DNA of 64,000 bases from Candidatus Rokuibacteriota bacterium. Lineage in GTDB: Bacteria; JAUVQV01; DATDCY01. This document shows positions 1,065 through 50,146 of this stretch, piece by piece. The notes under the pieces are model-generated. The model saw only the letters and a list, made by a program, of their open reading frames with translations. It was not told the DNA's origin and made no database searches. Location: positions 48,574 to 112,573 of the forward strand of contig JANOHV010000007.1 of assembly GCA_031406795.1 (NCBI GenBank). Direction: 5' to 3'. A program made the position numbers and the translations under genes. How positions within the stretch are numbered: the stretch's first letter is position 1; each line of letters begins with the position of its first letter.

Positions 1065-1065
1065 C

Positions 1066-9116: not shown

Positions 9117-9163
9117 TGAAGGTGATGTCTTTTCGAGCCGGATAGCAATGAGGAGCAGGGGGC

Positions 9164-35452: not shown

Positions 35453-36631
35453 CTACTTGTACAACAGGGAATTCGCGGTTCGCTGCTCAAAGGCGGCCAA
35501 CTCGCGCGACCACGCCCGTTCGAGCGCGGCGACCGGCTGCCCCGCATCCAGCCCTTCGCGGATGCGGGCGTCTCCCGTCAACAGGTCGATCGGCAGGCGA
35601 ACCGTCTCGTATTCGTAGGGGGGCGGTCGCCAGAGTTCGGCGTCGGGCCAGAGCCGGCGAATCTCCGTCAGCAGCGCGAGCGTCGTGCGATAGGGACGGT
35701 AGGCGCGCGGGTCGACGACGTGGATCTGCAGGCCGCCGCAGACCTGCCCCGCCCACTTCTGGAATGTCGGCTGGAACCAGGCTTCCCGGAAGACCGCCCC
35801 AGGGAGGCGGCGGCGGCGCAGCGCGGCGCACAGCGGCGCGGGATCGATCCAGGGCGCGCCGCAGCTCTCGAAGGGCCGCGTAGTGCCCCGTCCCTCCGAG
35901 AGCAGTGTCCCTTCGAGGAGCACCTGGCCGGGGTAGACCAGCGCCGTGTCGGGCGTCGGCATGTTCGGGCTCGGCGGCACCCAGGGCAGCCCGGTGTCGG
36001 TGAAGAGCAGCCGCCGGCGCCAGCCGCGCAGCCGGATGACGTGCAGGTCGACGTCGATGCCCCCTTCGGCGGTGAAGAGCCGCGCCAGCTCGCCCATCGT
36101 GAGGCCATGGCGCATCGGGAGCGGGTGGGCGCCGACGAAGGAGAGCTGCGCGGGGACGAGGAGGTTGCCTTCGGTCGTGCCGCCGACCGGGTTTGGCCGG
36201 TCGAGAACCACGATCTTCTTCCCGAGGCGGGCCGCCTCCTCGAGGCAGTAGCGCAGCGTCGTGATGAAGGTGTAGACGCGGCAGCCGACATCCTGCAGGT
36301 CGACCAGCAGCATGTCGATCCCCGCGAACATCTCCGCGGTCGGTCGGCGAACGTCGGCGTAGAGCGAGTACACCGGGATGCCGAGCGCGGGGTCGCGCCC
36401 GTGCCGGGATTCGACCATGTTGTCCTGCTGCTCGCCGAAGATGCCGTGCTGCGGTGAAAAAAGCGCCGTGAGGCGCCGGCCGAATTTTTTCGCGACGAGG
36501 TCGCGGGCGTGCCGCAGGTTCGCGTCGACGGAGGCCTGATTGCAGAGCAGACCGAGCCGGGCTTGCGCGAGGAATCCCGGCGGCTTGGCGAGCAGGGCCT
36601 CGAGTCCGGTGGTGACGCGTCGATTGGCCAT
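35453..36631 (-). CDS. DUF1343-family protein (NamZ-like exo-beta-N-acetylmuramidase family)
   Basis: 392 aa with family-typical blocks (..LFSPQHG..VYSLY..LLVDLQDVGCRVYTFITTL..VVLDRPNP..GLPWVPPSPNMPT..). Confidence 0.7.
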   Translation of the reverse strand: MANRRVTTGLEALLAKPPGFLAQARLGLLCNQASVDANLRHARDLVAKKFGRRLTALFSPQHGIFGEQQDNMVESRHGRDPALGIPVYSLYADVRRPTAEMFAGIDMLLVDLQDVGCRVYTFITTLRYCLEEAARLGKKIVVLDRPNPVGGTTEGNLLVPAQLSFVGAHPLPMRHGLTMGELARLFTAEGGIDVDLHVIRLRGWRRRLLFTDTGLPWVPPSPNMPTPDTALVYPGQVLLEGTLLSEGRGTTRPFESCGAPWIDPAPLCAALRRRRLPGAVFREAWFQPTFQKWAGQVCGGLQIHVVDPRAYRPYRTTLALLTEIRRLWPDAELWRPPPYEYETVRLPIDLLTGDARIREGLDAGQPVAALERAWSRELAAFEQRTANSLLYK

Positions 36632-36865
36632 GGCCGGCGTCCCTTCCCCCCCCGATCCGATGTTTGCAGCTGTCCCCGACCCTGGATGGCGACTATAGCA
36701 TGCCGGCAGGCGCTTGATTTTCTTGACACAAGTTCAAGGAACTGGTAGGTAATTCAGTCGCCGTGACGGGGACGGGCGCTTGCCGGAACAAAGGTGGACG
36801 CAATTGCCGTGTTTGTCCGTCGCGCTCGAACAGTGGTGGGTGAGAACCCGGGCAAAGGAGCGCAC

Positions 36866-37330
36866 ATGCAAGAGTTGAGTTTCGCGGAGATTATCAGCTA
36901 CGCCACGATCGCCGAGGACAACGCCATCGCCTTCTACAAGAGCGCGGCGGCGATGGCTTCGCAGCCGAGCGTGAAGAAGTTCCTCGAGGAGCTGGCGGCG
37001 ATGGAAGCCGGCCACAAGCGGCACCTCGAGAAGCTGATCCAGAAGTTCGAGAAGAGCAAGTGCATCCCGAGGCTCCAGAAGGAAATCCACACCCTCGGGT
37101 ACGCCGAGTTCATCAAGCCGATCACGCTCGACGCCGACTCCTCCTACAAGGACGCGATCGAGGCCGCGATGGTCAAGGAGCGCGAAGCGGTCGCCACCTA
37201 CGAGAAACTGTCGATCTACGTCGACGACCCGGACGCCAAGCAGGTCTTCAAGCTGCTGCTCGAGGAGGAGAAGAAACACCTCAAGCGCTTCGAGACCGAG
37301 TACGACGATTTGACGAATCAGAACTGGTAG
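36866..37330 (+). CDS. Rubrerythrin/erythrin-like ferritin-fold diiron protein (no rubredoxin domain)
   Basis: ORF 36794..37330, trimmed to MQELSFAEIISYA (ATG 36866, AAAGGAG SD). Two E...EXXH pairs (EDNAIAFY...ELAAMEAGH; EREAVATY...EEEKKH). Confidence 0.7.
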   Translation: MQELSFAEIISYATIAEDNAIAFYKSAAAMASQPSVKKFLEELAAMEAGHKRHLEKLIQKFEKSKCIPRLQKEIHTLGYAEFIKPITLDADSSYKDAIEAAMVKEREAVATYEKLSIYVDDPDAKQVFKLLLEEEKKHLKRFETEYDDLTNQNW

Positions 37331-37345
37331 GGGGACGAGAGAGCC

Positions 37346-38203
37346 ATGTTTGAGATTCTGGAGAAGAAAGTCTGGCTGGCCGAGGAGCCGCGGATCGTCG
37401 AGTTCCTCGTGAAGGCCCCCGAGATCGCCCGCGCGCATCACGCCGGGCAGTTCGTGATCGTCATCCCGGTCGAGGGCGGCGAGCGCATCCCGCTGACGAT
37501 CGCCGACAGCGACGCCAAGGCCGGCACGATCAGCCTGGTCTTCCAGGAGGTCGGCGCCTCGACGATCCTGCTCGGCCGCCTCGAGAAGGGGCAGCCGATC
37601 CCGCACGTCGCCGGCCCGCTCGGCAAGCCGACGCACATCGAGAGGTTCGACGGCGCGGTGGTCTGCGTCGGCGGCGGCATCGGCGTCGCGCCGATCCACC
37701 CGATCGCCAAGGCCATGAAGGCCGCCGGCAACCACGTGATCTCGATCCTGGGAGCGCGCTCGAAGAACCTGATGATCTACGAGGACCGGATGTGGGCCGC
37801 GAGCAACGACGTGCGGATCACCACCGACGACGGTTCCTACGGCCGCAAGGGTTTCGTCACCGACGAGCTCAAGGGGATCATCGAGGGCGGCACGAAGGTC
37901 GGCTGCGCAGTCGTGATCGGGCCGCCGATCATGATGAAGTTCACCTGCAAGGTCACCGAGCCGCACAAGATCCCGACGTTCGCCAGCCTGAACACGATCA
38001 TGGTCGACGGCACCGGGATGTGCGGCGCCTGCCGCGTGACCGTGGGCGGCAAGACCAGGTTCGTCTGCGTGGACGGCCCGGAGTTCGACGGGCACCAGGT
38101 GGACTTCGACGAGATGATGGCGCGCCAGCGGCAGTACCTCCCCGAGGAGAAGCAGGCGAAGGACCGCTGCCAGAGCGGCCACGGCACCTGCCACACGGTC
38201 TAG
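37346..38203 (+). CDS. nfnA: NfnA/SudB-type FAD and [2Fe-2S] ferredoxin-NADP+ reductase-like subunit (PyrK/GltD-small-partner family)
   Basis: 285 aa. MFEILEKKVWLAEEPRIVEFLVKAPEIARAHHAGQFVIV...GGGIGVAPIHPIAKA...CGACRV (Cys cluster at the C-terminus). Confidence 0.8.
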   Translation: MFEILEKKVWLAEEPRIVEFLVKAPEIARAHHAGQFVIVIPVEGGERIPLTIADSDAKAGTISLVFQEVGASTILLGRLEKGQPIPHVAGPLGKPTHIERFDGAVVCVGGGIGVAPIHPIAKAMKAAGNHVISILGARSKNLMIYEDRMWAASNDVRITTDDGSYGRKGFVTDELKGIIEGGTKVGCAVVIGPPIMMKFTCKVTEPHKIPTFASLNTIMVDGTGMCGACRVTVGGKTRFVCVDGPEFDGHQVDFDEMMARQRQYLPEEKQAKDRCQSGHGTCHTV

Positions 38204-38255
38204 CCCGGGCGACCGGCGAGCGTGCAACCCAAGAGCGATCGAGGACGACGAGACG

Positions 38256-39752
38256 ATGACTGAAGAGCAGAAGGACCAGCCGAAGCCCGCCCCCGCCGCG
38301 AAGCCCAAGGTGCCGCGGCAGGCGATGCCCGAGCAGAACGCCAAGAAGCGCGCCAAGAACTTCGAGCAGGTGACCACCGGCTACACCGAGGAGCAGGCGC
38401 AGCTCGAGGCCTCGCGCTGCCTCTCGTGCAAGAAACCCAGCTGCGTCGCCGGTTGCCCGGTGAGCGTGCCGATCAACGTCTTCATCACCGCGATCAAGGA
38501 GAAGGACTACGCCAAGGCGGTCGCGGCGATCAAGTCGACGAACCTGCTCCCCGCGGTCTGCGGCCGCGTCTGCCCGCAGGAGATTCAGTGCGAGAGCAAG
38601 TGCGTGATCGCCAAGAAGCAGGAGTCGGTCGCGATCGGGCGCCTCGAGCGTTTCGTCGCCGACTGGGAGGCGAGCCAGGGCGATTCCCCGGTGCCCCCCA
38701 AGCCGAAGCAGACCGGCAAGAAGATCGCCGTCTGCGGCTCCGGCCCCGGCGGTCTGATCTGCGCCGGGTACCTGATCCAGGCCGGCCACGACGTGACGAT
38801 CTTCGAGGCGCTGCACAAGGCCGGCGGTGTGCTGGTCTACGGCATCCCGGAGTTCCGGCTGCCCAAGGCGATCGTGCAGCGCGAGGTGGACTACCTCGTC
38901 AAGCTCGGCTGCGAGCTCAAGACCGACTTCATCGTCGGCAAGACGCGTACGATCGGCCAGCTGATGCAGGAAGACGGCTATGACGCGGTCTACATCGGCG
39001 TCGGCGCGGGGCTGCCGTGGTTCATGGACATCCCGGGCGAGAACCTCAACGGCGTCTACAGCGCGAACGAGTACCTGACGCGCAACAACCTGATGAAGGC
39101 CTTCGAGTTCCCGAATTCGGACACGCCGATCAAGCGGCACAAGAATGTCGCGGTGGTCGGCGGCGGCAACGTGGCGATGGACTCGGTGCGCACGGCGCTG
39201 CGTCTCGGCGCGGACAACGCGTACATCGTCTACCGCCGCGGCATGGAAGAGCTGCCCGCGCGCAAGGAAGAGGTCGAGCACGCCGGGCACGAGGGCGTGC
39301 AGTTCAAGATCCTCACGGCGCCGGTCAAGGTGATCGGCAACAAGGAAGGTTGGGTCTGCGGGCTCGAGTGCCTGGAGATGGAGCTGGGCGAGCCGGACGC
39401 CTCGGGCCGCCGCCGCCCGATCCCGAAGGAGGGCTCGAACTTCGTGCTCGAGGTCGACGCGGTGATCCCCTCGATCGGCACGGGCGCGAACCCCTTGCTG
39501 GCGCAGACGACCCCGGACATGCAGTTCACCAAGCGCGGCTACATCGCCGTCGAGTCCGAGGCCACCGGCCGCACGACCAAGAAGGGCGTCTTTGCGGGGG
39601 GCGACATCGTCACCGGCGCGGCGACCGTCATCCTCGCGGCCGGCGCGGGCCGCGCCGCGGGCATGGCGATCGACAAGTTCCTCAAGGACGGCGAGTGGTG
39701 GGATCCGAACGCGCCGAAGCCCGAGGCGGTGCCGGCGCCGGCGGCGAAATAA
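38256..39752 (+). CDS. nfnB: NfnB/SudA/GltD-type NAD(P)H-dependent oxidoreductase subunit (glutamate synthase small-subunit family, 2x[4Fe-4S] + FAD + NAD(P))
   Basis: 498 aa. CLSCKKPSCVAGCPV..CGRVCPQEIQCESKC..IAVCGSGPGGL..VVGGGNVAMD. Confidence 0.85.
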   Translation: MTEEQKDQPKPAPAAKPKVPRQAMPEQNAKKRAKNFEQVTTGYTEEQAQLEASRCLSCKKPSCVAGCPVSVPINVFITAIKEKDYAKAVAAIKSTNLLPAVCGRVCPQEIQCESKCVIAKKQESVAIGRLERFVADWEASQGDSPVPPKPKQTGKKIAVCGSGPGGLICAGYLIQAGHDVTIFEALHKAGGVLVYGIPEFRLPKAIVQREVDYLVKLGCELKTDFIVGKTRTIGQLMQEDGYDAVYIGVGAGLPWFMDIPGENLNGVYSANEYLTRNNLMKAFEFPNSDTPIKRHKNVAVVGGGNVAMDSVRTALRLGADNAYIVYRRGMEELPARKEEVEHAGHEGVQFKILTAPVKVIGNKEGWVCGLECLEMELGEPDASGRRRPIPKEGSNFVLEVDAVIPSIGTGANPLLAQTTPDMQFTKRGYIAVESEATGRTTKKGVFAGGDIVTGAATVILAAGAGRAAGMAIDKFLKDGEWWDPNAPKPEAVPAPAAK

Positions 39753-39814
39753 CGACGGGACCCGCCGGGCACATTCCGGCTGGTCGCGACGATCGGCGAC
39801 GGGATTCATTCACC

Positions 39815-39844
39815 GTCGTAGGGGCGGGGTTGATCCCCGCCCGC
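39815..39844. repeat. REP-like hairpin element GTCGTAGGGGCGGGGTTGATCCCCGCCCGC (same family as 17411-17488 and 41224-41253)
   Basis: Seen directly, downstream of the nfnB stop. Confidence 0.7.
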
Positions 39845-39861
39845 TCCTGAACGATCACGAA

Positions 39862-39896
39862 GCCCTCCCCCGGCGAACCTGGGGGAGGGCTTTTCT
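39862..39896 (+). terminator. Rho-independent terminator of nfnB (GCCCTCCCCC-ggcgaacct-GGGGGAGGGC-TTTTCT)
   Basis: Perfect 10-bp GC stem followed by a T-tract. Confidence 0.8.
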
Positions 39897-39992
39897 GTCC
39901 CCGACACCGGAATCCCGTGCCGGAGGTTGATCCCCGGTGGAACAGTGGGGCGGGAAAACCTCATGCGCTACCTGATCCGTGCACCGTTCTCG

Positions 39993-40222
39993 ATGAACAA
40001 GATCTGCTACGACCCAAAAACCCAATCCGTGATCCGGTGGCGCGATGCGGATCGTCGCGTTCATCGAAGAGCCTCGGGTCGTGAGCGCCATCCTCGAGCA
40101 TCTGTCGCTCTGGGACGAGCCGCGGGGTGGATTGATCTTCACCGGGAGGCGACGCGGCGGTGGTCTGCGTCGCGATGCGCAGTGGTACATACAACGGCAT
40201 GGCGGCGCGTGAGTGCTGGAAC
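39993..40222 (+). pseudogene. Degraded transposase C-terminal fragment, possibly IS91-like (two frames: ..CYDPKTQ.. then MRIVAFIEEPRVVSAILEHLSLWDEP..)
   Basis: Frame-shifted short reading frames. The tail motif IAFIE-P-V(V/I)..IL.HLGLWD recalls the C-terminus of some transposases; the family assignment is from memory and uncertain. ORF 39927..40376 mixes these frames. Confidence 0.3.
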
Positions 40223-40278
40223 TTCATCGCCAGCTTTGTCCAGCCGCCTCCCTGGGAGAAGTCGTGAACAGCCCAGGA

Positions 40279-40653
40279 TCACTTCTTTCGGTAGTACCTC
40301 ACGTCCGTCAGCCCATCGAAGTGCGCGTCGGTCGTCCAGAGCGTGGCCCGGTATCGGTGCGCGGTGGCGAGGATGACGCTATCGGCGAGCGGAAGCGCGT
40401 GCTGCAGGCCCAGGTCAGCAGCAAAGATCGCCAGCGATTCGTCGAGGGGTGCGAGCCGTCCCTTGCTCATCTGGGCGGCAACTTCAGCCGCCAACTCCTG
40501 ACCGCGCCGACGCTTGATGATCTTGTAGACTTCGAGAAGACAGACGGTCGGCACAAGCAGGGCGCTTGTGTCACAGATCGGTTTGGCGAAAGCTGCCCCG
40601 TGTTGCCCGTCCATCAGGAACTCGATCCAGCCGGAGGAGTCGACGAGGTTCAC
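40279..40653 (-). CDS. vapC: PIN-domain VapC toxin (type II TA)
   Basis: 124 aa. MNLVDSSGWIEFLMDG...LLVPTVCLLEVYKII...DSVILATAHRYRATLWTTDAHF (PIN acidic residues). Stop overlaps the vapB start. Confidence 0.8.
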   Translation of the reverse strand: MNLVDSSGWIEFLMDGQHGAAFAKPICDTSALLVPTVCLLEVYKIIKRRRGQELAAEVAAQMSKGRLAPLDESLAIFAADLGLQHALPLADSVILATAHRYRATLWTTDAHFDGLTDVRYYRKK

Positions 40654-40865
40654 CCGCGATCCTCTTCGTCGGCGTCGCGGTCGAAGTCGAGCGGCACGCC
40701 TTTGAGAATTCCGCGCATCTCCCGGATCGGCCGGTTCGGGACCAGCCGCACCTGGTCGCCGATCGTGACGAGCTGCAGCTTCTGCCCGGGTTTTATCCTG
40801 AGCTGTTCACGGACTTCCCGCGGAATGACGATCTGGTACTTGGACGAGACGGTCACGGCTGCCAT
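40650..40865 (-). CDS. vapB: AbrB/MazE/SpoVT-family antitoxin VapB
   Basis: ORF 40650..41102, trimmed to MAAVTVSSKYQIVIPREVREQLRIKPGQKLQLVTIGDQVRLVP... (ATG 40865; alternative ATG 40877). Swapped-hairpin AbrB fold signature. Confidence 0.7.
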   Translation of the reverse strand: MAAVTVSSKYQIVIPREVREQLRIKPGQKLQLVTIGDQVRLVPNRPIREMRGILKGVPLDFDRDADEEDRG

Positions 40866-40980
40866 AGGCACCTCCATCGATCGATGATTTGTAAGACGAT
40901 GGTACCGGTGCCGGCGGCGAAAGGCAAGGATGCCAGTGCTATCTGGTTTTGCGACTGGGCCGGGCGCGACTGGCTCGGCA

Positions 40981-41310
40981 TCGAAGCGATCAAATCGGCG
41001 CCGACAACGCGAACATCGTCTACCGCCGCGGCGTGGAAGAGCTGCCCACGCGCAAGGAACAAGAAGGGCGTCTTCGCGGGCGGCGATCGACAAGTACCTC
41101 AAGGACGGCGAGTGGTGGGATCCAAACGCGCCGAAGCCCGCCGAGGCGGCCCCGGCGGCGAAGTAACAACGAAACCCGTCGGCCAGATTCCGACGGACCG
41201 TGCAGCGACGGAATCCAATCGCCGTCGTAGGGGCGGGGTTGATCCCCGCCCGCAGGTAACGGACACCAGAGCCCTCCTCCGGCGACGAGCCGGGGGAAGG
41301 TTTTTTTGCC
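40981..41310. repeat. Decayed, internally deleted second copy of the nfnB 3' end plus REP element and terminator (~85-90% identical to 39209-39270, 39578-39605 and 39668-39900)
   Basis: Direct comparison: gcgccgacaacgcgaacatcgtctaccgccgcggcgtggaagagctgccc... / ...tcgacaagtacctcaaggacggcgagtggtgggatccaaacgcgccgaagccc...gcggcgaagtaa...gtcgtaggggcggggttgatccccgcccgc...gccgggggaaggttttttt. Confidence 0.8.
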
Positions 41311-41365
41311 CGTCGGGGAGGCGCCGCTCAGCGGCGTTTGACATGCGTCACGTTACGCATTACAT

Positions 41366-41483
41366 TTGCGTCGTGATCAAGACCTTCGCGGACCGCCACA
41401 CCCTCAATGGCGCATTTGCTTTCGCTTTGCCGCCGGCGATGCGTTCGACGTCGAGATTGCGGATTACCACGAGGAGGGTGTGA
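41366..41483 (+). pseudogene. higB: HigB (RelE-like) toxin remnant: N-terminal ~10 residues joined out of frame to the C-terminal ~25 residues, middle deleted
   Basis: Frame 1 reads VIKTFADRHTLNG (HigB N-terminus, compare MIKSFKHKGLE). An overlapping second frame reads PHPQWRICFRFAAGDAFDVEIADYH (the conserved HigB C-terminus ..W.RICFR...GDAYDVEIVDYH). The whole locus is only ~115 nt; a full HigB is ~92 aa. Confidence 0.5.
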
Positions 41484-41484
41484 C

Positions 41485-41808
41485 ATGGCGATCGGGTTCA
41501 ACGGCAAGCGGGACATCGCGCCGACCCATCCGGGGGAGATGCTCCGGGAGGACTTCATTCCGGACTACGGGCTCACCGTCGCCGGCTTGGCGAGCGCCCT
41601 CGGGGTTTCGCGCCAGAGCGTGAACGAGGTGCTTCGCGAGCGGCGCGCGGTGTCCCCGGAGATGGCACTTCGTCTCTCGCGGCTCTTCCACAACTCCCCG
41701 GAGTTCTGGCTGAACGCGCAGCGCGCGGTGGATCTCTGGAATGCCGCGCGTCACATCGAGAAGGAGATCCAGCGCATCAAGCCGCTGAATGCGATCGTCG
41801 AGGGGTGA
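41485..41808 (+). CDS. higA: HigA-family antitoxin (XRE-type HTH)
   Basis: ORF 41407..41808, trimmed to MAIGFNGKRDIAPTHPGEMLREDFIPDYGLTVAGLASALGVSRQSVNEVLRERRAVSPEMALRLSRLF (ATG 41485, GAGGAGGG SD); a classic HigA. Confidence 0.75.
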   Translation: MAIGFNGKRDIAPTHPGEMLREDFIPDYGLTVAGLASALGVSRQSVNEVLRERRAVSPEMALRLSRLFHNSPEFWLNAQRAVDLWNAARHIEKEIQRIKPLNAIVEG

Positions 41809-41812
41809 CGAT

Positions 41813-42664
41813 ATGGAGCGCGTGCAGATCCAGTCGATTCTGGCCCGACTCGAGGAGCAGGAAGATGTCCGGATCGTTTACGCCTGCGAGTCCGGCAGCC
41901 GGGCTTGGGGATTTCCGTCGGCGGACAGCGACTACGACATCCGGTTCATCTACGTCCGGCCGCGGGACTGGTATCTTTCCGTCGATCTCGAGCACCGGCG
42001 CGATGTCATCGAGCGCCCCGTGCAGGGTGTGGTCGACCTCAGCGGCTGGGACTTCCGGAAAGCCCTTGGGCTCTTCAGGAAGTCCAACCCCCCGCTGCTG
42101 GAATGGTTGAACTCGCCGATCGTCTATCTCGAAGCGACAGGCGCGGCCGCCAGGCTGCGCGCGCTGCTCGGGGAATTCTACTCCCCGGCGGCTTGCGCCC
42201 ACCACTACCTGCACATGGCGCGGGGGAACTTCCGCGAGTACCTCAGCGGGTCGGAGGTCTGGGTCAAGAAATACTTCTATGTCCTGCGCCCGCTGCTGGC
42301 GGTGAAGTGGATCGAAGCCGGGCACGGCGTGGCGCCGATGGCGTTCTCGGTTCTCGTCGACCGTATCATCACGGATCCCGATCTCAAAAATGCGATCGCG
42401 CGTCTTGTCGAAGCCAAACGCCGCGGTGACGAGCTGGACCGGGGGCCGATGATCCCCGCGATCACCGCCTTCATCGAACAGGAGATGTCGCGGCTCGAGA
42501 CCTCGCCGCTGAGTCTTCCCGGCGCAGCCCCGCCGATCGATCCGCTGAACGAACTGTTCCGATCAGTGCTGGAGGAGGCCTGGGCCGACTCGCGTCATGG
42601 GCGGAGGGTGGCACCCGCTCCCGCGGTCGCCCTCGTCGCGGAACTTGGCATCGAGCCCGATTAA
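41813..42664 (+). CDS. Predicted nucleotidyltransferase-domain protein (Pol-beta superfamily NTase with a C-terminal helical domain; PF10127-like)
   Basis: ORF 41789..42664, start at ATG 41813 (MERVQIQSILARLEEQEDVRIVYACESGSRAWGFPSADSDYDIRFIYV; GS...D.D NTase motif). A decayed duplicate of parts of this gene lies at 46430-46620. Confidence 0.6.
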   Translation: MERVQIQSILARLEEQEDVRIVYACESGSRAWGFPSADSDYDIRFIYVRPRDWYLSVDLEHRRDVIERPVQGVVDLSGWDFRKALGLFRKSNPPLLEWLNSPIVYLEATGAAARLRALLGEFYSPAACAHHYLHMARGNFREYLSGSEVWVKKYFYVLRPLLAVKWIEAGHGVAPMAFSVLVDRIITDPDLKNAIARLVEAKRRGDELDRGPMIPAITAFIEQEMSRLETSPLSLPGAAPPIDPLNELFRSVLEEAWADSRHGRRVAPAPAVALVAELGIEPD

Positions 42665-43013
42665 CCGAGAGATTTCTTCGTGCTCGGCGTCAAGAAGAAC
42701 GCTGGGCGGTGCCGATCGTCGCGCGCGGGCCGCGTCCATCCTTCGAAATGGGACAGGTCCTCCCCGGTATGAAGCTGGAAGATCTCGGTGTCACCGAGAT
42801 GGCGCGCCGTATCGCCGCCTTGGTGCTCCTGGAGCCGGAATTGGACGCGAACTGCCAGCGCGTAACCGCCGCGACCTATCCCTGGCCGCGGGAAGCTTCT
42901 GACCTACTACTTTGAAAAATCATCGCGTGGGGCGACGATATAGACAAAACACAAGCCTCTAGAGTCTTGCGGGCGAGACGCCCGCGCTAGGGAATTGTGA
43001 TAGCATTCACGTC

Positions 43014-43304
43014 ATGAGCAGGGAAGAGATCATCGGCGCCCTGCACGCGGCGCTGCCAACGATTCAGCGGAAATATCATGTCCAGAGGCTTGCGCTGTTC
43101 GGCTCAGCCGCGCGCGGCGAGCAGATTCCGACGAGCGACGTCGACCTTCTTGTTGAATTCGACGAGCCGATCGGCTTGTTCGATTTCGTCCGTCTCGAGC
43201 GTTCTCTCGGAGAAATCCTGCATGCCAACGTCGACCTGGTCTCGGCGAAGGCGCTGAAACCGGCCATTCGCGAGGAAGTATTGAGTCAGGCGGTGTACGT
43301 CTAG
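43014..43304 (+). CDS. mntA: MntA-type minimal nucleotidyltransferase antitoxin (HepT/MntA type VII TA)
   Basis: 96 aa. ..LALFGSAARGEQIPTSDVDLLVEF... (GS...D.D motif). Confidence 0.75.
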   Translation: MSREEIIGALHAALPTIQRKYHVQRLALFGSAARGEQIPTSDVDLLVEFDEPIGLFDFVRLERSLGEILHANVDLVSAKALKPAIREEVLSQAVYV

Positions 43305-43311
43305 CCGGGGT

Positions 43312-43389
43312 GTGAAGCTCTATCTCGCGGATATCCTGGAAGCCATCGAGAAGATCGGGCGGTACGGGTCGAATCGGACCTCCGGTTGA
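43312..43389 (+). pseudogene. hepT: HepT (HEPN/DUF86) toxin remnant: only the first ~26 codons remain, then a stop
   Basis: (V)KLYLADILEAIEKIGRYGSNRTSG* matches the DUF86 N-terminus (..RLYLEHILEAIEKIERY..); the rest of the ~115-aa protein including the Rx4-6H motif is absent. Confidence 0.4.
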
Positions 43390-43479
43390 AAAGTGGTGGC
43401 ACGATGCTATATTTGCGTTGACGTATAGCGTTCGCTAACAGGGGCTTCGGGCAGTTCTCATCGCTGGAGGAAGCGCATT

Positions 43480-43842
43480 ATGGCAAACCCGTTCGTCCAC
43501 GTGGAATTGAACACGCGCGATCTCGCCACGTCCAAGGAATTCTACGCCGGCCTTTTCGACTGGAAGCTCGAGGAAATGACGGGCGGCGGGGACTATTCGA
43601 TCATCAATGTCGGGGAAGGAACGGGGGGAGGCATGATGAAGAACCCCGTCCCCGGAATGCCCGACTTCTGGCTTCCTTATATCCTCGTGGACGACGTGAA
43701 AACCTCGACGAAGAAGGCGCAATCCCTCGGGGCCACCGTCCACAAGGACGTCACCGAGGTGCCGGGCATGGGGTGGTTCAGTGTGCTCGCGGATCCCACC
43801 GGTGCGGCTTTCGGGCTCTGGCAGGCCACTATGGGGAAATGA
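43480..43842 (+). CDS. VOC (glyoxalase/bleomycin-resistance fold) family protein
   Basis: 120 aa. MANPFVHVELNTRDLATSKEFYAGLFDWKLEEM...GMMKNPVPGMPDFWLPYILVDDV. Confidence 0.7.
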   Translation: MANPFVHVELNTRDLATSKEFYAGLFDWKLEEMTGGGDYSIINVGEGTGGGMMKNPVPGMPDFWLPYILVDDVKTSTKKAQSLGATVHKDVTEVPGMGWFSVLADPTGAAFGLWQATMGK

Positions 43843-43909
43843 ACCTCGGAGGCAGGGACAGCCGATTTGCTTCCTGATCCTATAACCACGGCTGAGAAGG
43901 AGGATTCCC

Positions 43910-44263
43910 ATGAGCTACGTTGACGGCTTTCTTATCCCCGTTCCGAAGAAGAACCTGAAAATCTACGCCCGGATGGCGAAGCAGGGTGCGAAAGCGTGGA
44001 TGAAGCACGGCGCCCTCGACTACAAGGAGTGCGTCGGGGATGACCTGCAGCCGAAATTTGGGATGCCCTTCCCGAAGCTGTTGAAGCTCAAGCCCGGCGA
44101 GACCGCGGTCTTCGCGTACATCGTCTTCAAGTCGCGGGCGCACCGCGATCGCGTCAATGCGAAGGTGATAAAGGAGATGGAGCAGGCGGCCCCGCCGACG
44201 GAGATGCCTTTCGACATGAAGCGGATGGTCTACGGAGGCTTCAAGACCCTGGTCGAGAGCTAG
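43910..44263 (+). CDS. DUF1428-family protein
   Basis: 117 aa. MSYVDGFLIPVPKKNLKIYARMAKQGAKAWMKHGALDYKECVGDDL... characteristic of DUF1428. Confidence 0.6.
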   Translation: MSYVDGFLIPVPKKNLKIYARMAKQGAKAWMKHGALDYKECVGDDLQPKFGMPFPKLLKLKPGETAVFAYIVFKSRAHRDRVNAKVIKEMEQAAPPTEMPFDMKRMVYGGFKTLVES

Positions 44264-44303
44264 CGTAGCAAGCGGCACAAGAACGTCGGGTGCGGCGAAA
44301 CCC

Positions 44304-45503
44304 CTACATCAGGGTCAGGACGGCGTCGCTGGTTCGGCCCTCGGGGTCGCAGCTTTTGAAGAGGATTTGGATTTCTCCGTCCGCGCTGATCTTGATGGGG
44401 ATTCCGCCATAGCGGTAGGCGGATTGCGCCGCGCTGCTGCGCGCGCCGAGGTGACTCCCCAGATTCGGATGTGGCTTGATCATCGCACCGACCGTGAGAA
44501 GTTCCTGGTCGTCGAAAATAACGGCGCCGTCCAGCCCGGCGAGTTCCAGGAAAAGATTCTTCTTTTCTACCAGGCGGTCCGTGCGGCCGAGGTGAATATC
44601 GCGAATGACCGGAGCGAGCATCGCGCGGGCCGCGTCGGGCGAAGGCGACTCGCCGCCGACAATGGATTGCGGATTCAGCACCTGCTCGATCACCTTGTGT
44701 CGCGGGTCGTAGACCAGCAGGGCGCCGTGCCGCCTATAGCTCAGGTCGAACATCAGTTCGAACAGGTTACTCCCGAGCGTGACGTTGCCCAGGATGGTGC
44801 AGACGCTGTTCTCGAGAGCCGGCGCGTCGTAAATATGCCAGCGTCCCTTCCGGTTCGCGGCCAGGAGGCCGCGCGAGTCCATGATGAAGAAGTCGCCTCT
44901 CTTCGTCAGGTGCAGGGAGAATTCTCCGTCCTGCAAAATCGACGCGAACGGCTCGAGAAACTCCGGGACGAACCGATACCCGGAAGACTCGGACACGTCT
45001 TTCAACAAAATTTCCCGATAGTCCAAATATTGCAAGTCGCGGTCCACGCGGAAATACACCTGCATGCTCGAAGACAGCGGGTCGATAATCTTCTGAATAC
45101 CCGGGTCCGCCAGCGAAAGCGCGCCCTGCCCGCTGCCGATGACGAGATTCATCGTGACGCGGTTATTTTCGTAGGTCCTGAACCGGATGTGCTCGATATA
45201 GGCGATGAACCGATTCCATTTGATGGCGGGATTGGCTATCTCCAGCCAGCGGACGGCGATGTCTTCCTCGACCTGCTGGAGCGATCTTGGCGTCGGGCTG
45301 GCAGGCATCTTCGCGATCCAGTCCTTGAGATGGTTCTGGATATATTCGTGGAGCAGGACCAGCTTCGGCGTCAGCGAGCTGTGGCTTTGGAACCTGAAGA
45401 CGTCTTTATCCACGGTGAGGGTGTAAACGTTTTTGGCGAACTCGCTGGCATACCAGTGCGGAACCGTCGATACCGCGGTCTCCATCACGATGTTTTCGTG
45501 CAT
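44304..45503 (-). CDS. Protein of unknown function, 399 aa: unknown ~250-aa N-terminal domain plus a divergent DAC (DisA_N, diadenylate cyclase)-like C-terminal domain. Low-GC gene with an AT-rich promoter region, likely horizontally acquired.
   Basis: C-terminal blocks align to DAC motifs: LSYRRHGALLVYD (~LS..R.GALIVIE), LDGAVIFDDQELLTVGAMIKP (~HDGAVII.GNRIAAAGCILPL), LGARSSAAQSAYRYGGIPIKISADGEIQI (~[31 protein letters not shown]), but RHR is replaced by RSS. The translation is K/N/I/F/Y-rich and the 5' flank 45504-45729 is AT-rich, unlike the ~68% GC surroundings. Confidence 0.45.
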   Translation of the reverse strand: MHENIVMETAVSTVPHWYASEFAKNVYTLTVDKDVFRFQSHSSLTPKLVLLHEYIQNHLKDWIAKMPASPTPRSLQQVEEDIAVRWLEIANPAIKWNRFIAYIEHIRFRTYENNRVTMNLVIGSGQGALSLADPGIQKIIDPLSSSMQVYFRVDRDLQYLDYREILLKDVSESSGYRFVPEFLEPFASILQDGEFSLHLTKRGDFFIMDSRGLLAANRKGRWHIYDAPALENSVCTILGNVTLGSNLFELMFDLSYRRHGALLVYDPRHKVIEQVLNPQSIVGGESPSPDAARAMLAPVIRDIHLGRTDRLVEKKNLFLELAGLDGAVIFDDQELLTVGAMIKPHPNLGSHLGARSSAAQSAYRYGGIPIKISADGEIQILFKSCDPEGRTSDAVLTLM

Positions 45504-45729
45504 GCGTCACTCCGGTTTGAAATTAGTTCCATTATACCTGAACGATCCCCTGGACGTGAGAATACTCGGGAACCTCAAAAAGAAAATAGTTGGCCTGCGC
45601 TTCGAAAAGCCGGCCGTCGCGCCGAGGTGGGCCATTTCTTTGCGCTGAACTTCGTTTTCAGCGAAACTGGCTCTATCTCCTTCAGGATCGACTTGACATC
45701 AAGGCATCATCATATTTATGCTTTGATGC

Positions 45730-45975
45730 ATGAGAACCACGCTGACTTTAGACGACGATGTCGCCGCAATCCTGAAACGGCTTGCGCGCACCCGCAACGC
45801 TCGCTTCAAGGAAGTGGTGAATGAGGCTCTCCGCCGCGGACTGACGAGCACGACCGCCGTGCCGGTTCGGGAGCCATTCCGGACGACCTCGGTCGCCCTT
45901 GGCCGGTGCCGGACGGGAACCGTCGATAATGTCGCCGACGCTCTCGCTGCGGCAGAGGGCGAGTCTTTTCGGTGA
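45730..45975 (+). CDS. vapB: Ribbon-helix-helix (CopG/VapB-like) antitoxin
   Basis: 81 aa. MRTTLTLDDDVAAILKRLARTRNARFKEVVNEALRRGL (RHH). Stop overlaps the GTG of the downstream PIN gene (GTGA). Confidence 0.7.
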   Translation: MRTTLTLDDDVAAILKRLARTRNARFKEVVNEALRRGLTSTTAVPVREPFRTTSVALGRCRTGTVDNVADALAAAEGESFR

Positions 45976-46400
45976 TCCTCGTCGATGCAAATCTGCTCGT
46001 CTATGCCCACGTAACGAGCTTCCCGCAACACAAGACCGCCAGGGAATGGCTTGACGGCAAGTTAAACGGAGCCGCCCCGGTCGGTTTGCCCTGGGAGAGC
46101 CTCCTCGCCTTTCTGCGGCTGGTCACCAACCCGCGGGTTTTCGAACAGCCGGAGCCGGCAGCAGCCGCTTGGGCGCAGGTGCAAGGCTGGCTCGGTAACC
46201 CGAACGTCTGGATTCCTCTGCCGACCGAAAACCACCGGGCGGTGCTCGGGAACTTGCTTTCGGCATCCAGCGTCCATGCGAACCTCGTCCCTGACGCGCA
46301 TCTCGCCGCGCTTGCCATCGAGCATGGGCTGGTCCTGTACTCGACTGACGGCGACTTCGCGCGGTTTCCCGGACTGCGCTGGAAAAACCCGCTGGCCTAA
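45972..46400 (+). CDS. vapC: PIN-domain VapC toxin
   Basis: 142 aa. MILVDANLLVYAH...LLAFLRLVTNPRVF...PDAHLAALAIEHGLVLYSTDGDFARF (PIN acidic residues D5, E-like, D at the C-terminus). Confidence 0.8.
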   Translation: MILVDANLLVYAHVTSFPQHKTAREWLDGKLNGAAPVGLPWESLLAFLRLVTNPRVFEQPEPAAAAWAQVQGWLGNPNVWIPLPTENHRAVLGNLLSASSVHANLVPDAHLAALAIEHGLVLYSTDGDFARFPGLRWKNPLA

Positions 46401-46429
46401 AGGCGAAGTTCGGCGAGCCGGCCGCGGGA

Positions 46430-46620
46430 TTGGTAGCTCTCCGTTGATCTTGAGCACCGGCGCGGTGTCACCGAACGCCCCGTGCAGGAAGAGATCGATC
46501 TCAGCGGCTGGGATTTCAGGAAAGCGCTCGGGCTCTTCAGGAAGTCTAATCCGCCGCTGCTGGCGGTGAAGTGGATCGAGGCCGGGCACGGCGTGGCGCC
46601 GAACGAGAAAGCAGCTGGGC
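46430..46620. repeat. Decayed, internally deleted duplicate of the NTase gene 41813-42664 (matches ~41985-42115 and ~42298-42350)
   Basis: Direct comparison: ...gatctcagcggctgggatttcaggaaagcgctcgggctcttcaggaagtctaatccgccgctgctggcggtgaagtggatcgaggccgggcacggcgtggcgccg... versus the NTase gene. ORF 46482..46673 translates to DLSGWDFRKALGLFRKSNPPLL / AVKWIEAGHGVAP. Confidence 0.8.
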
Positions 46621-46718
46621 AAGATCGATCAGCTGTTCTTCTGAGGGACGCGGAGGCCCCGGGACGCGCGTGAAAACTGTTACAATCCGGGCGGACTGAC
46701 ATAAACCAGGGAGGGGAT

Positions 46719-47324
46719 GTGGCCATGGACACGTTTGCCGCCATCGAGCAGCGCCGCTCAGTCAAGCACTACGACCCGAACCACCGGATGACCGACGAGG
46801 AGGTCCGCAAGCTCATCGGGCTGGCGATCCTCTCGCCCACCTCGATCAACATGCAGAACTGGCGCTTCGTCGTCGCGCGCGACCCCGAGCTGCGCCGGCA
46901 GTTGCGCGCCGTCTCGTGGAACCAGGCCCAGGTGACGGACGCCTCGATCTGGGTGATCATCTGCGCCGACCTGCAGGCCTTCAAGAAGAAGCCGGAGCGC
47001 TACTGGCGCACGGCGCCGGCGGAGATCGCGAAGATGATGGTGCAGATGCTCGGGATGTACGAGGGGAAGGAGCAGCTGCAGCGCGACGAGGCGCTGCGCT
47101 CCTGCGGCATTGCGGCCCAGACGATCATGCTCGCCGCCAAGGCGATGGGGTACGACAGCTGCCCGATGGCCGGGTTCGACCCCGCGGCGGTCGGCACGCT
47201 GATCAACCTGCCGGTCGACCACGTGATCGGCATGGCGGTCGCGGTGGGCAAGCCGCTGCAGCCGGCGCGGCCGCGCGGCGGCCAGCTGCCGCTCGAGGAA
47301 GTGATGGTCTTCGACCGTTTCTAG
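46719..47324 (+). CDS. Nitroreductase-family protein (FMN-dependent NAD(P)H oxidoreductase)
   Basis: 201 aa. ..AIEQRRSVKHYDPNHRMTDEEVRKLIGLAILSPTSINMQNWRFVV...; classic nitroreductase N-terminus. Confidence 0.8.
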   Translation: MAMDTFAAIEQRRSVKHYDPNHRMTDEEVRKLIGLAILSPTSINMQNWRFVVARDPELRRQLRAVSWNQAQVTDASIWVIICADLQAFKKKPERYWRTAPAEIAKMMVQMLGMYEGKEQLQRDEALRSCGIAAQTIMLAAKAMGYDSCPMAGFDPAAVGTLINLPVDHVIGMAVAVGKPLQPARPRGGQLPLEEVMVFDRF

Positions 47325-47436
47325 CGCCGTGGCGATCGGCGAGGTGGGCCGGCTGGTCGGGGGGCGTCAAGCCCGCCGAGGCCGCTCCCGTCGCCAAGTG
47401 CCATTGCGCCGACCCATCCGGGGGAGGGTAGCGTCT

Positions 47437-49773
47437 TTACGCGTCCGCGGGCCCGGCGGGGGGCGCCTTCCTCGCGGCCGTCTTCTTGACGGCGGCCTTC
47501 TTCGGTGCGGCCTTTGCCGGCTTCTCCTTCGGCGCCGCAGCCTTTTTTGGTGCGGTCTTCCGCGGTGCCTTCTTCACGGCCGGCTCCTCCCGGGGAGCGG
47601 GGGCTTCCCGGGAGGCTTCCCCTGACGCCTGAGGGACGGGGGCTGCCGCGGGTGCCGGTGCCGCCGCCTCAGCGGCGCGCTCCACCGCCGGCGGGGGGAC
47701 GGCAGGCACTGCGAATGCCTCCCAGGCCTCGTCGTGGCGGACATTCGGAGCCCCGGCGCCGGACTCCGTCAGGACCGGCGGCGCTGTCTTCAGCTCGACG
47801 GCGGCCTGGTCTGACGGCCTCTCGCCCTTCGATCGTCTTCGCCGCCGCCTTTTTCGCCGGGATGACGCGGCGGCGTCAGCGTCTTCCTGCGCGGGCCCCG
47901 CGTCGGTTTGAGCGACCAGCGCTTCGCGGGACATCACCCGGGCTGCGGGCGGGAAATCATTCTCGGGAGCGACGTTCCCGCGGAACTCATTTTCGATCTT
48001 TTCGACCACCGATCCGATCGACGCTGCAGGGGGTGCTCCCCACTCCCGGGGGGACGGCTCCTGAGCGCTGCCGTCGTGCTTGCGGCCCCGCCGCCGGCGC
48101 TTGCGGCGGGAACGCTTCTCGCCGCCGGCCCCATTCCCGTGTTCCTGTGCCGGTCTGGGCGGTGCCGTTTCCCTGGGCGGCGCCGCATCCCTTCGTGGCG
48201 TCTCGGCCCGCTCCTCGTCCGCGGGAGCGATCGGCACGGCTGGGGAACGGTCGTCGTCTTCGTCGCCCGTGCGGCGCTCCGGCGCTCCGGGGACTTCCCA
48301 GGCGGGCACGTCGAACCACTCGTAGCGCTCCGTCGAGAGCTCCACGCCCGGGTCGCCGACGATCTCCACCACGATGCGGTAGGTCCTCTCGAGGTCGGCA
48401 AGCTCGCGGCGCCGGTTGTTCTGGACGAAATCAGCGACCTTCGAGTGCAGCACCACCTTCGCCCTGGCCAGTCGCCCGGTGGCTGCCCGGCCCTCGATGC
48501 GGCGCACCAGATTCAGGCTGAGCAGCTCGGGGCTGATGATCCGGCCGACACCCTCGCAGGTCGGGCAGATCCGGCGAGTCCGAAGCTGGAGGGCGCTCCT
48601 GATGCGCTGGCGGTTGATCTCGACCAGGCCGTTTTCGCCGATGCGCCCGATCTCGTGGCGGGCGTGGTCCGGCTTCATCGCCTCCCGCAAGGCCTTCTCC
48701 ACGTCGTGCCGGTGTGCGCGCGAGCGCATGTCGATGAAGTCCACGACCACCAGCCCGCCGATGTCGCGCAGCCGCAGCTGCCTCCCGACCTCGGCCGCGG
48801 CCTCGAGATTGGTATGGCTGGCCGTGTCGCCCTGATTCTTCCCGGCTTTCGACTTTCCGGAGTTGACATCGATCGCGGTCAGCGCCTCGGCGTGGTCGAT
48901 GACGATGGCGCCGCCGCTCGGCAGGCCGACGGTGCGGCTGTAGATCGAGGCGATCTGGGGTTCGACGTTGAATCGCGAGAAGAGGGGCATGGATTCGGCG
49001 TAGAGCTTGAGCGCGACCTTCGCGCGCGGCATCACCGCCTGGACGTACTTCTCCGCCTTGGCGAGGAGCTGTTCGTCGTCGATCAGGACCTCGGCGATCT
49101 GCGTGTCGAGGTTGTCGCGCAGCGAGTGGATCAGCAGGTCCTGGTCGTCGTACAGCAACTTCGCGCCCCGTCCCTGCGCCGTGTCGTCGACCACGGCCTT
49201 CCAGAGGCGCTTGAGCACCTGCAGGTCGGCCTTGAGGTCGGCCTTGGTCTGCTCGGCGGCGTTGGTGCGGACGATGACGCCCTCGCCCTCGTCCAGGTCG
49301 AGGTCCTTGGCCTTTTCGCGCAGCTTGCGGCGCAGCGCCTCGTCCTCGACCTTGCGGGAGACGCCGCGCTGCGCGTCGTACGGGAAGTAGACGAGAAAGC
49401 GGCCGGCGAGGCTGATGTTGGTCGTCAGCGTCGCGCCCTTGCCGCCCTCGGCGTCCCGCGTGACCTGCACGACCAGGGGCTGCCCCTTCTGGAGGATCTG
49501 GTCGATCGGTGCCGAGTCGCCCGCGTCGCGGTGAAACGCCTGGGGAATCACGTCGTGGCGGGTCAGAAAGCCGTGCTTCGCGTCGCCGTACTCGATGAAG
49601 CCGGCATTGAGGCTCCGCTCGATGTTGGCGACGACGCCGCGGTAGATGTTGCCGCGCTTGAGTGTGGCCTCGGTTCCCTCGACGTCGTAGAGCTGGAGGA
49701 CTCCCCCCTCCACGACGGCCACGCGAAGCTGCTCGGCGTGGCGTCCGTTGATCAGCATGATGCGGTTGCTCAT
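47437..49773 (-). CDS. rne: Ribonuclease E/G-family endoribonuclease with a long Arg/Ala/Pro/Lys-rich disordered C-terminal region (RNase E-like degradosome scaffold)
   Basis: 778 aa. S1 domain at the N-terminus (MLINGRHAEQLRVAVVEGGVLQLYDVE..GNIYRGVVANIERSLNAGFIEYG), catalytic core (..GGAIVIDHAEALTAIDVNSGKS..GGLVVVDFIDMRSRAHRHDVEKAL..), Zn-link CPTCEGVGRI, then a ~300-aa low-complexity tail. Confidence 0.85.
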   Translation of the reverse strand: MSNRIMLINGRHAEQLRVAVVEGGVLQLYDVEGTEATLKRGNIYRGVVANIERSLNAGFIEYGDAKHGFLTRHDVIPQAFHRDAGDSAPIDQILQKGQPLVVQVTRDAEGGKGATLTTNISLAGRFLVYFPYDAQRGVSRKVEDEALRRKLREKAKDLDLDEGEGVIVRTNAAEQTKADLKADLQVLKRLWKAVVDDTAQGRGAKLLYDDQDLLIHSLRDNLDTQIAEVLIDDEQLLAKAEKYVQAVMPRAKVALKLYAESMPLFSRFNVEPQIASIYSRTVGLPSGGAIVIDHAEALTAIDVNSGKSKAGKNQGDTASHTNLEAAAEVGRQLRLRDIGGLVVVDFIDMRSRAHRHDVEKALREAMKPDHARHEIGRIGENGLVEINRQRIRSALQLRTRRICPTCEGVGRIISPELLSLNLVRRIEGRAATGRLARAKVVLHSKVADFVQNNRRRELADLERTYRIVVEIVGDPGVELSTERYEWFDVPAWEVPGAPERRTGDEDDDRSPAVPIAPADEERAETPRRDAAPPRETAPPRPAQEHGNGAGGEKRSRRKRRRRGRKHDGSAQEPSPREWGAPPAASIGSVVEKIENEFRGNVAPENDFPPAARVMSREALVAQTDAGPAQEDADAAASSRRKRRRRRRSKGERPSDQAAVELKTAPPVLTESGAGAPNVRHDEAWEAFAVPAVPPPAVERAAEAAAPAPAAAPVPQASGEASREAPAPREEPAVKKAPRKTAPKKAAAPKEKPAKAAPKKAAVKKTAARKAPPAGPADA

Positions 49774-50146
49774 AGGTGCTCCCTTGTCCTGTGGGTGGGT
49801 GGCCGGGTTACGGGAGAGGCGCGGGACTTCCAGGGCCGGTTCCGGAACCGCCTGCCGGCCGACGATCGAAGAAAGCCGCCCGGCGACGCAATGGCGGGCG
49901 GCTATGCCGGGGTGGCAATGGCCACGAGCAACGGTCCTCTCACCAGACGCATGGAGCGTATTGTGACGATCCTGTCTCAGGTGTCAACCTCGATCGCGCC
50001 AGATCCCTCTGGAGACGACCTTTCTCGGTGTCGGAGAGATCGCCGATCTCCGGGTGAGCGCGACCGGACCGGTTCCCCAGCGGGCGGCTGTGCCTGTACC
50101 ATCGGCACAGCCGCCCCCATTCTCTGGAGGGAGTGAAAGCGCTCCT

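Follow-up and report, generated by a model that had tools for sequence, protein, structure and literature searches.

Two direct-repeat pairs with eroded downstream copies in a hypervariable accessory islet between nfnB and rne of a Candidatus Rokuibacteriota genome

Introduction

How do accessory genes come to lie behind a conserved gene, side by side with broken copies of that same gene? This question is raised by a 64-kb stretch of Candidatus Rokuibacteriota DNA (contig JANOHV010000007.1, hereafter the window), in which the 3' flank of nfnB carries toxin-antitoxin (TA) modules, a transposase remnant and partial copies of two genes, nfnB itself and the nucleotidyltransferase gene rlaP. A preliminary description, made from the letters alone, read these partial copies, here called nfnB' and rlaP', as decayed duplicates of neighbouring genes marking the two limits of one inserted island, possibly an integrative element or the outcome of rearrangement by an insertion sequence. 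We asked whether the relics indeed bound an island, from what they derive and how they came to stand downstream of intact genes. What separates nfnB from rne, two conserved genes that converge, is a 7.5-kb hypervariable accessory islet, whose repeated rebuilding with DNA of related bacteria best explains what we found.

Results

The interval between nfnB and rne is variable

The gene order in the window is namZ (minus strand), rubrerythrin, nfnA, nfnB, the variable interval, a nitroreductase gene and rne (minus strand); coordinates of all features are collected in Table 1. Relatives were fetched as loci labelled L001, L002, L161-L164 and L166-L170. Scanning a genome collection with NfnB gave only two close loci, L002 (94% amino-acid identity, a metagenome-assembled genome (MAG) labelled Candidatus Rokubacteria) and L001 (90%, also a MAG), and a metagenome scan with the same protein gave no match above 73% identity among the matches listed. 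Exact-protein look-ups of the window NfnB, the window nitroreductase and a 100%-identical match, P0001, returned no record. A third relative, L166 (GCA_041643095.1, Methylomirabilota, "Rokubacteria"), was found by an RlaP search.

Synteny around nfnA holds with L001, L002 and L166 at 89-96%. L001 and L002 run collinear with the window over the 10 kb upstream; from the nfnB stop codon onwards they part from it and carry unrelated housekeeping-type genes. In L166 the order is namZ, rbr, nfnA, nfnB, a repetitive extragenic palindromic (REP) element with terminator, yjbQ, rlaP, ficC, nfnB', a P-type ATPase gene, a GGDEF gene (minus strand) and rne (minus strand). Nucleotide similarity between the window and L166 covers 35472-39896 (89%), so that the nfnB REP and terminator are common to both up to 39896, and then restarts exactly at the rne stop (47437-49866, 85%). 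Between nfnB and rne the two genomes share only rlaP (78.6%) and an nfnB' relic. The whole convergent nfnB-rne interval (39901-47436) is therefore variable. After nfnB, moreover, L001, L002 and L166 each carry different genes, and in none of them is nfnB followed directly by the nitroreductase gene or by rne.

The composition of the interval also differs from that of its surroundings. GC content at third codon positions (GC3) is 0.71-0.89 in the cargo genes versus 0.95-0.97 in nfnA, nfnB and the nitroreductase gene, and overall GC falls to 0.52-0.60 across 42.8-45.8 kb. L001, L002 and L166 lack the cargo genes, and this absence together with the deviating composition is what generally defines a genomic island. 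The accessory, compositionally distinct DNA with a transposase relic and several TA modules that had been noticed in the nfnB 3' flank is thus confirmed. Its end had been placed at 46620; compared with L166, the variable interval extends from 39900, at the nfnB terminator, to 47437, at the rne stop.

Two pairs of direct repeats lie in series within the islet

The partial copies belong to two direct-repeat pairs standing one after the other. In the first pair, segment A (39205-39900) is followed by insert X (39901-40994, an insertion sequence (IS) relic and vapBC1) and then by copy A' (40995-41311), which is nfnB'. The second pair comes after higB'A and consists of segment B within rlaP (41956-42338), insert Y (about 42.6-46.4 kb) and copy B' (46418-46605), which is rlaP'. 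In both pairs the downstream copy is the eroded one, lies in direct orientation and lacks the 5' part of the gene, and both relics begin abruptly where a cargo block ends, each block including a vapBC module at that end. The stretch of 39.9-47.4 kb is spanned by neither pair: nfnB' sits 1.1 kb into the islet, and rlaP and rlaP' bracket only its right-hand 3.75 kb. The relics therefore do not bound the island. The view that they are scars stands in that they are true recombination scars, and falls in that they are two independent pairs in series and not the edges of one insertion.

BLAST of the window against itself, together with a repeat finder, resolved nfnB' into three collinear pieces: 40995-41059 corresponds to 39205-39269 (93.8%, E 2e-21), 41057-41086 to 39575-39604 (90%) and 41075-41311 to 39656-39900 (80-85%, E 6e-54). 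The relic keeps 317 bp for the 696 bp of its parent, with deletions of 305 and 60 bp, and starts about 125 nt upstream of the divergently transcribed vapB1. Its third piece carries the exact 22-nt REP core GGGGCGGGGTTGATCCCCGCCC, a palindrome for which 0 matches are expected by chance. The same four hairpins, which in segment A include the REP core at 39821-39842 and the terminator at about 39863-39896, fold in the 3' untranslated regions (UTRs) of both nfnB and nfnB'. The second relic, rlaP', consists of 46418-46563, corresponding to 41956-42101 (86.3%, E 1e-43), and 46554-46602, corresponding to 42290-42338 (98%, E 2e-16), in the same self-comparison. It amounts to 185 bp for 383 bp of parent, 198 bp between two copies of CCCGCTGCTGG having been deleted in frame; it begins 18 nt past the vapC2 stop and lacks both gene ends. 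Neither homology extends beyond these edges above shuffle level. The two copies had been described as a deleted copy of about the last 550 bp of nfnB with its REP element and terminator, and a similar copy of the nucleotidyltransferase gene; self-BLAST bears out both, with coordinates off by about 15 nt at most.

Related structures were found in other lineages. The nfnB' relic of L166 (11354-11601) starts about 150 bp further upstream in nfnB and has one 585-bp deletion with an imperfect 10-nt microhomology, and the two nfnB 3' copies of L166 are identical over about 85 nt. L168 carries, in this order, an Rce1-like gene, an nfnB' relic (about 100 nt plus terminator, no REP), a 66-nt mntA fragment and rlaP, and L169 has the order higA-rlaP. 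The microhomologies at the deletion junctions are GGCGA, CCCGCTGCTGG and, in L166, CCCGAA(T/C)GC. Further gene fragments, for example of yjbQ or ficC, were not found by tblastx of the islet against the relatives at 45 bits or more; the unfiltered comparison is mostly high-GC noise. In L166 itself, a 62-nt copy (84%) of the yjbQ 3' end (9828-9889) lies at 20151-20212, 10 kb away and beyond rne; short gene-fragment relics therefore seem common in these genomes.

The REP-like palindrome GTAGGGGCGGGGTT(G/A)ATCCCCGCCC is dispersed in the window (39818-39842, 41227-41251 and a variant at 17412-17437) and also in L166 (964-988, 4977-5001, 9368-9392 and 11519-11543). The remaining 172 loci fetched do not contain it, and Rfam gives no match to it.

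The rlaP' relic derives from another allele

In the long piece of rlaP', 14 of the 20 differences from rlaP fall at third codon positions (P = 9e-4). The copies are separated by 13 synonymous versus 6 non-synonymous codon changes, giving a synonymous divergence (dS) of 0.43 and a ratio of non-synonymous to synonymous divergence (dN/dS) of 0.10. Core genes have a dS of 0.14-0.22 between the window and L166 or L002, and rlaP one of 1.0 between the window and L166. Informative sites uniting rlaP with rlaP' number 0; the two form a star with L168 and L169, with L166 as outgroup. With a dS above that of the core and no uniting site, the copies therefore diverged as functional genes before the genomes split and were joined later. 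Judged by its sequence, rlaP' is what is left of a different rlaP allele that was functional for long and broke recently, and not an in-place copy of its neighbour; the earlier reading as a decayed duplicate of the adjacent gene is not supported. Displacement predicts that copies within one genome are not sisters, and for rlaP they are not; for nfnB the quartet counts are mixed.

The intact rlaP has itself changed at its end: a stop near 42599, present in L168 and L169, is lost (CAT TAG to CAT GGG), adding about 22 codons (42596-42664). The homology of L169 to rlaP runs a few bases beyond the old stop.

Ancestral states no longer found at the 3' end of present-day nfnB persist in the nfnB' relic, namely the tail PAEAAPAAK, a TAC codon and the terminator arm CCTCC, and the changes unique to nfnB' are mostly non-synonymous, in a small sample. 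Within nfnB, the identity of the window to L002 is 97-99% at 38.39-38.6 kb and 87-90% at 38.84-38.99 kb, with the opposite trend against L166. This mosaic of identities (window versus L002, L166 and L001) suggests homologous recombination among lineages inside core genes.

Proposed homology-anchored insertion and its alternatives

The account that we favour, at about even confidence, is repeated insertion of relatives' DNA anchored by homology, with displacement of the old 3' fragments. Incoming DNA would integrate by homologous recombination in sequence common to donor and recipient; in one event the anchor would be the 3' part of nfnB including REP and terminator, in the other rlaP. At its far end the insert would be joined without any homology, whether linear DNA underwent an illegitimate join or a circle was rescued by a single crossover. 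Each event would leave an intact gene, new cargo and a 5'-truncated old copy in direct orientation; the left scar would then read nfnB, IS91 relic with vapBC1, nfnB', and the right scar rlaP, the block of mntA, hepT', VOC, DUF1428, the gene with the diadenylate-cyclase (DAC) fold and vapBC2, then rlaP'. The displaced copy, being redundant, would erode through deletions between short repeats, and the same erosion may account for the loss of higB and hepT, whose antitoxins are now orphans, and for that of most of the transposase. The repeats and their geometry, the variable nature of the interval, the microhomologies at deletion junctions and the foreign or ancient origin of rlaP' are shown; the recombination mechanism and the assignment of one copy as the resident are what we infer. 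For this account speak the two 5'-truncated downstream copies that start at the end of a cargo block, the variable interval, the recurrence of nfnB' relics that differ in extent and deletions, the divergence of rlaP' from rlaP, the ancestral states kept in nfnB', the microhomologies, the lower GC3 of the islet genes and published analogues.

Homology-facilitated illegitimate recombination was proposed for effector-immunity arrays of type VI secretion systems (T6SS) (Kirchberger et al. 2017, PMC5361080), and displacement of Rhs C-terminal ends was explained likewise (Jackson et al. 2009, as cited in PMC5361080). As in Rhs, contact-dependent inhibition (CDI) and T6SS arrays, a conserved anchor stands upstream, cargo follows directly and an old 3' fragment without its 5' part lies downstream; within-genome copies are not closest relatives, and orphan protective genes, here antitoxins, are kept. 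Unlike in those systems, a nucleotidyltransferase gene and nfnB, a housekeeping redox gene, are the anchors here, with no polymorphic toxin or variable toxin tip; what was displaced survives as short eroded relics and not as arrays of usable modules, and the mechanism is deduced.

Several points weigh against this account. No donor arrangement or empty site was found in the genome-collection scan or among the metagenome matches listed, and because of this the joints between insert and relic cannot be shown to be new joints and are themselves deduced. A long-standing pair of rlaP paralogues would equally give the observed dN/dS. In a quartet test that compares the window with L166 over the nfnB 3' regions, 9 sites support within-genome pairing, 7 of them in the tract where the L166 copies are identical, and 4 sites favour an ancient shared duplication of this region; a single old duplication followed by gene conversion is thus a possible origin of nfnB'. 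Finally, sliding nfnB identity against the three relatives shows mosaicism and no clear chimeric breakpoint or step near 39205.

The left scar might instead result from capture by an IS91/ISCR element, which we consider doubtful: a rolling-circle transposase at the nfnB terminator would have made a circle of IS, vapBC1 and part of nfnB, which was rescued by RecA into nfnB, duplicating its 3' segment. The transposase relic does adjoin the first copy, beginning 27 nt past its terminator, and its 3' end faces the cargo and the second partial copy. The topology equals that of the 3' conserved segment (3'-CS), ISCR1, cargo and partial 3'-CS in ISCR1 complex class 1 integrons, for which PMC3940617, citing Stokes 1993, Partridge & Hall and Toleman, describes ISCR circles rescued by homologous recombination into partial 3'-CS duplications. 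However, no IS relic accompanies rlaP and rlaP', lies between nfnB and nfnB' of L166 or occurs in L168, and tblastn with the IS91 transposase found nothing near rlaP or rlaP' nor in L166, L168 or L169. Neither oriIS nor terIS was identified: no intact relative of the relic IS was recovered to define these ends, and the transposase is too eroded to judge them. Unlike in the ISCR1 integrons, moreover, the transposase is here a relic of about 90 codons, the cargo is vapBC and not a resistance gene, the setting is the chromosome of a member of the Methylomirabilota, and the rlaP/rlaP' scar lacks an IS.

Alternatively, the nfnB 3' end and an rlaP unit could have been duplicated or amplified in tandem in situ, with later insertions and differential deletions, and been inherited by several lineages. 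For this speak nfnB' relics near rlaP in three lineages, the REP elements at the repeats and the fact that the four sites uniting both nfnB' relics lie outside the L166 conversion tract. We nonetheless hold it to be unlikely: the rlaP/rlaP' dS of 0.43 exceeds core divergence with no shared derived sites, and the non-functional relics would need to be older than the split of the lineages and to have survived it. In view of the wholly different cargo that the copies enclose in the window and in L166, and of the missing REP in the L168 relic, we lean towards recurrent events, rather than one ancient duplication, as the source of the nfnB' relics.

Homology-anchored insertion also has a bolder version, which we consider rather improbable, in which the nfnB 3' end with REP and terminator would be a portable, integrase-free landing pad: cassettes with a copy of it on either side would loop out by RecA, move between Methylomirabilota cells and re-insert at nfnB. 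If true, this would explain the differently built nfnB' relics in at least three lineages and the 85-nt identity of the L166 copies.

A degraded site-specific integrative element targeting the nfnB 3' end and carrying a replacement 3' end is very unlikely. At icd, e14 and phage 21 are integrative elements which restore the 3' end of the gene that they target; as there, inserted DNA is flanked by a duplicate of a gene 3' end, and the functional copy is the upstream one. Unlike there, short core att sites are missing and the duplicated stretch, about 700 bp, flanks only 1.1 kb, and what rlaP' covers is the middle and not the 3' end of its gene. Pfam scans of all open reading frames (ORFs) of 39.9-47.4 kb and of the flanking genes found no integrase or recombinase, no tRNA and no Rfam family lie within 39-48 kb, and no att-like repeat pair surrounds the whole region, so the integrative element with att repeats suggested by the preliminary description is not supported. 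Least credible of all is chance similarity or an artefact such as a chimeric MAG contig of strain variants, for although the contig is evidently metagenome-assembled and wrongly joined variants could mimic diverged repeats, the E-values range from 1e-16 to 1e-54, unique sequence surrounds the relics, whose internal deletions and frame shifts are specific, and analogous relics occur in the independent assemblies L166 (NCBI), L167 (Logan) and L168 (JGI).

Other candidates were rejected. A retro-copy, that is, complementary DNA of the nfnB mRNA 3' end, was considered since all nfnB' relics end at the terminator, and was dropped because the 3' end of its gene is missing from rlaP', a reverse transcriptase is absent, and insertion at intergenic points accounts for the shared edge. 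An integron-like array was set aside as no integrase and no attC-like repeats were found, and a phage origin as viral contigs gave only distant RlaP matches (30-50%) and one distant DAC-fold match (41%).

Cargo genes of the islet

The gene content listed in the preliminary description (transposase remnant, two VapBC pairs, HigB'-HigA, the nucleotidyltransferase, MntA/HepT', VOC, DUF1428 and the DAC-like gene) was recovered by Pfam and tblastn, with weak evidence for HepT' (Table 1).

Table 1. Features of the nfnB-rne interval and its flanks (window coordinates)
Feature	Coordinates	Strand	Evidence and remarks
nfnA-like gene, conserved left flank	37346..38203	+	Pfam DHODB_Fe-S_bind, NAD_binding_1; GC3 0.97
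nfnB-like gene (GltD-type), final conserved gene before the variable interval	38256..39752	+	Pfam Fer4_20, Pyr_redox_2
Segment A, parent of nfnB' relic: nfnB last 548 bp and 3' UTR	39205..39900	+	Self-BLAST, repeat finder
IS91/ISCR-family (Y2 HUH) transposase relic, two C-terminal-third fragments in different frames	39927..40212	+	
vapC1 (PIN toxin)	40279..40653	-	Pfam PIN E 7e-13; overlapped by vapB1
vapB1 (AbrB/MazE-type antitoxin)	40650..40868	-	Pfam MazE_antitoxin E 6e-12
nfnB' relic (segment A'): three nfnB 3'-end pieces in three different frames, REP 41230-41251, terminator 41275-41307	40995..41311	+	
higB' relic (RelE/HigB toxin), N-terminal about 10 and C-terminal about 22 amino acids in different frames, middle deleted	41339..41484	+	
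higA (helix-turn-helix antitoxin), now orphan	41485..41808	+	Pfam HTH_3
rlaP (RlaP/Pol-beta-type nucleotidyltransferase)	41813..42664	+	Pfam RlaP E 6e-91
mntA (nucleotidyltransferase antitoxin), now orphan	43014..43304	+	Pfam NTP_transf_2; PADLOC PDC-S09
Putative hepT' relic, first about 25 codons only	43311..43391	+	Translation, directly after mntA
VOC/glyoxalase-fold gene	43480..43842	+	Pfam Glyoxalase
DUF1428 gene	43910..44263	+	Pfam DUF1428 E 7e-32
399-amino-acid protein, C-terminal DAC fold	44304..45503	-	Pfam DAC below threshold
vapB2 (ribbon-helix-helix (RHH) antitoxin)	45730..45975	+	Weak Pfam VapB_antitoxin, RHH_1; overlaps vapC2
vapC2 (PIN toxin)	45972..46400	+	Pfam PIN E 2e-9
rlaP' relic (segment B'): middle of rlaP gene	46418..46605	+	One stop codon; residual ORF still matches Pfam RlaP
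Nitroreductase single-gene module (coding sequence 46725-47324)	46673..47366	+	Pfam Nitroreductase; GC3 0.97
rne (RNase E/G), conserved right flank	47437..49773	-	Pfam RNase_E_G

The IS91-type transposase fragment is the only mobility relic in 39.9-47.4 kb and lacks the N-terminal about 255 amino acids and about 100 internal ones. In tblastn it matches a transposase encoded on a Trichlorobacter plasmid (E 3e-3 in a search of all plasmids, which recovered the second fragment; 1e-9 pairwise, 3.5e-6 local). The Y2_Tnp/Zn_Tnp_IS91 assignment is that of Pfam on this reference protein; the relic itself gives NCBIfam ISCR_clade_Ia at E 0.0014, and its first fragment was recognised by eye only, from the motif LxRYxIRxPFS, since Pfam and NCBIfam could not classify it.

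TA-rich variable regions occur between conserved genes. As in such regions, type II and type VII modules (VapBC twice, HigBA and MntA/HepT) are clustered here, with lower GC3. In both VapBC pairs a small antitoxin gene overlaps a downstream PIN-domain gene, the arrangement by which such modules are recognised. HigBA and MntA/HepT have no intact toxin partner, so that, unlike in usual TA-rich regions, 2 of the 4 toxins are deleted with their antitoxins intact. The C-terminal piece of HigB' matches RelE/ParE toxins encoded beside HigA (plasmid tblastn, E 7e-6), and higA is 95% identical at its 3' end to L169, where it likewise lies upstream of rlaP. The identity of the putative hepT' is proposed from a weak tblastn match (E 0.6) to a toxin overlapping its antitoxin gene; neither it nor the HigB' piece was classified by Pfam or NCBIfam. 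A promoter scan gave promoter-like sites at 41338-41366, by higB', and at 45693-45722, near vapB2. PADLOC recognised no defence system except MntA-like matches.

The DAC-fold gene is a single-gene module (44302-45564) with a 95.6% nucleotide match in L170, in another context. The AlphaFold2 model of its product has a mean confidence (pLDDT) of 92; the C-terminal about 160 amino acids match CdaA, DacA and DisA (Foldseek E 6e-6), and the N-terminal about 250 gave no match. The family is rare, with 86 matches at E<=1e-5 among 5.8 billion proteins, none with a name. In it the DGA motif is invariant (D325-G326-A327) and the RHR motif is replaced by R-S/T-S/T (GARSSAA).

The nitroreductase module comprises the gene with about 50 nt upstream and about 40 nt downstream, and has core-like GC3 yet a variable context. 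Its relatives in L161-L164 (84-93% nucleotide, 82-92% protein identity) are similar only within the module coordinates and lie beside AddAB (L161), a TA cluster and a P-type ATPase gene (L162) or unknown genes (L163, L164). As these contexts are unrelated, the gene failed as a right-hand anchor of the islet. In L162, a more distant relative whose nitroreductase is 82% identical, the 10 kb upstream (1-9824) are packed with TA genes: MazE-PIN, RHH-PIN, another PIN and MntA-like genes, with an rve-type transposase. This TA-rich variable region resembles that of the window but has other genomic surroundings.

Elsewhere in the window, 11856-12847 contains tandem-like internal repeats with a period of about 150 nt (66-67% identity over about 850 nt), which probably belong to a repetitive protein-coding gene. 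Two 53-nt palindromes, 94% self-complementary, lie at 2056-2108 and 2190-2242, spaced by 134 nt.

Conclusion

In conclusion, this locus, well preserved and well documented, exemplifies a known process in a phylum that has been little studied, and is not a new kind of element. For annotators it carries a caution, as an apparent "decayed duplicate" of an adjacent gene can be the relic of another allele, and what such relics mark is single recombination events, not the borders of an island. For an uncultured soil phylum with large genomes, the arrival and decay of accessory genes can be read from the islet: insertion would be anchored in the last conserved gene, old copies moved downstream and eroded by deletion between short repeats, with toxins lost and antitoxins staying behind.

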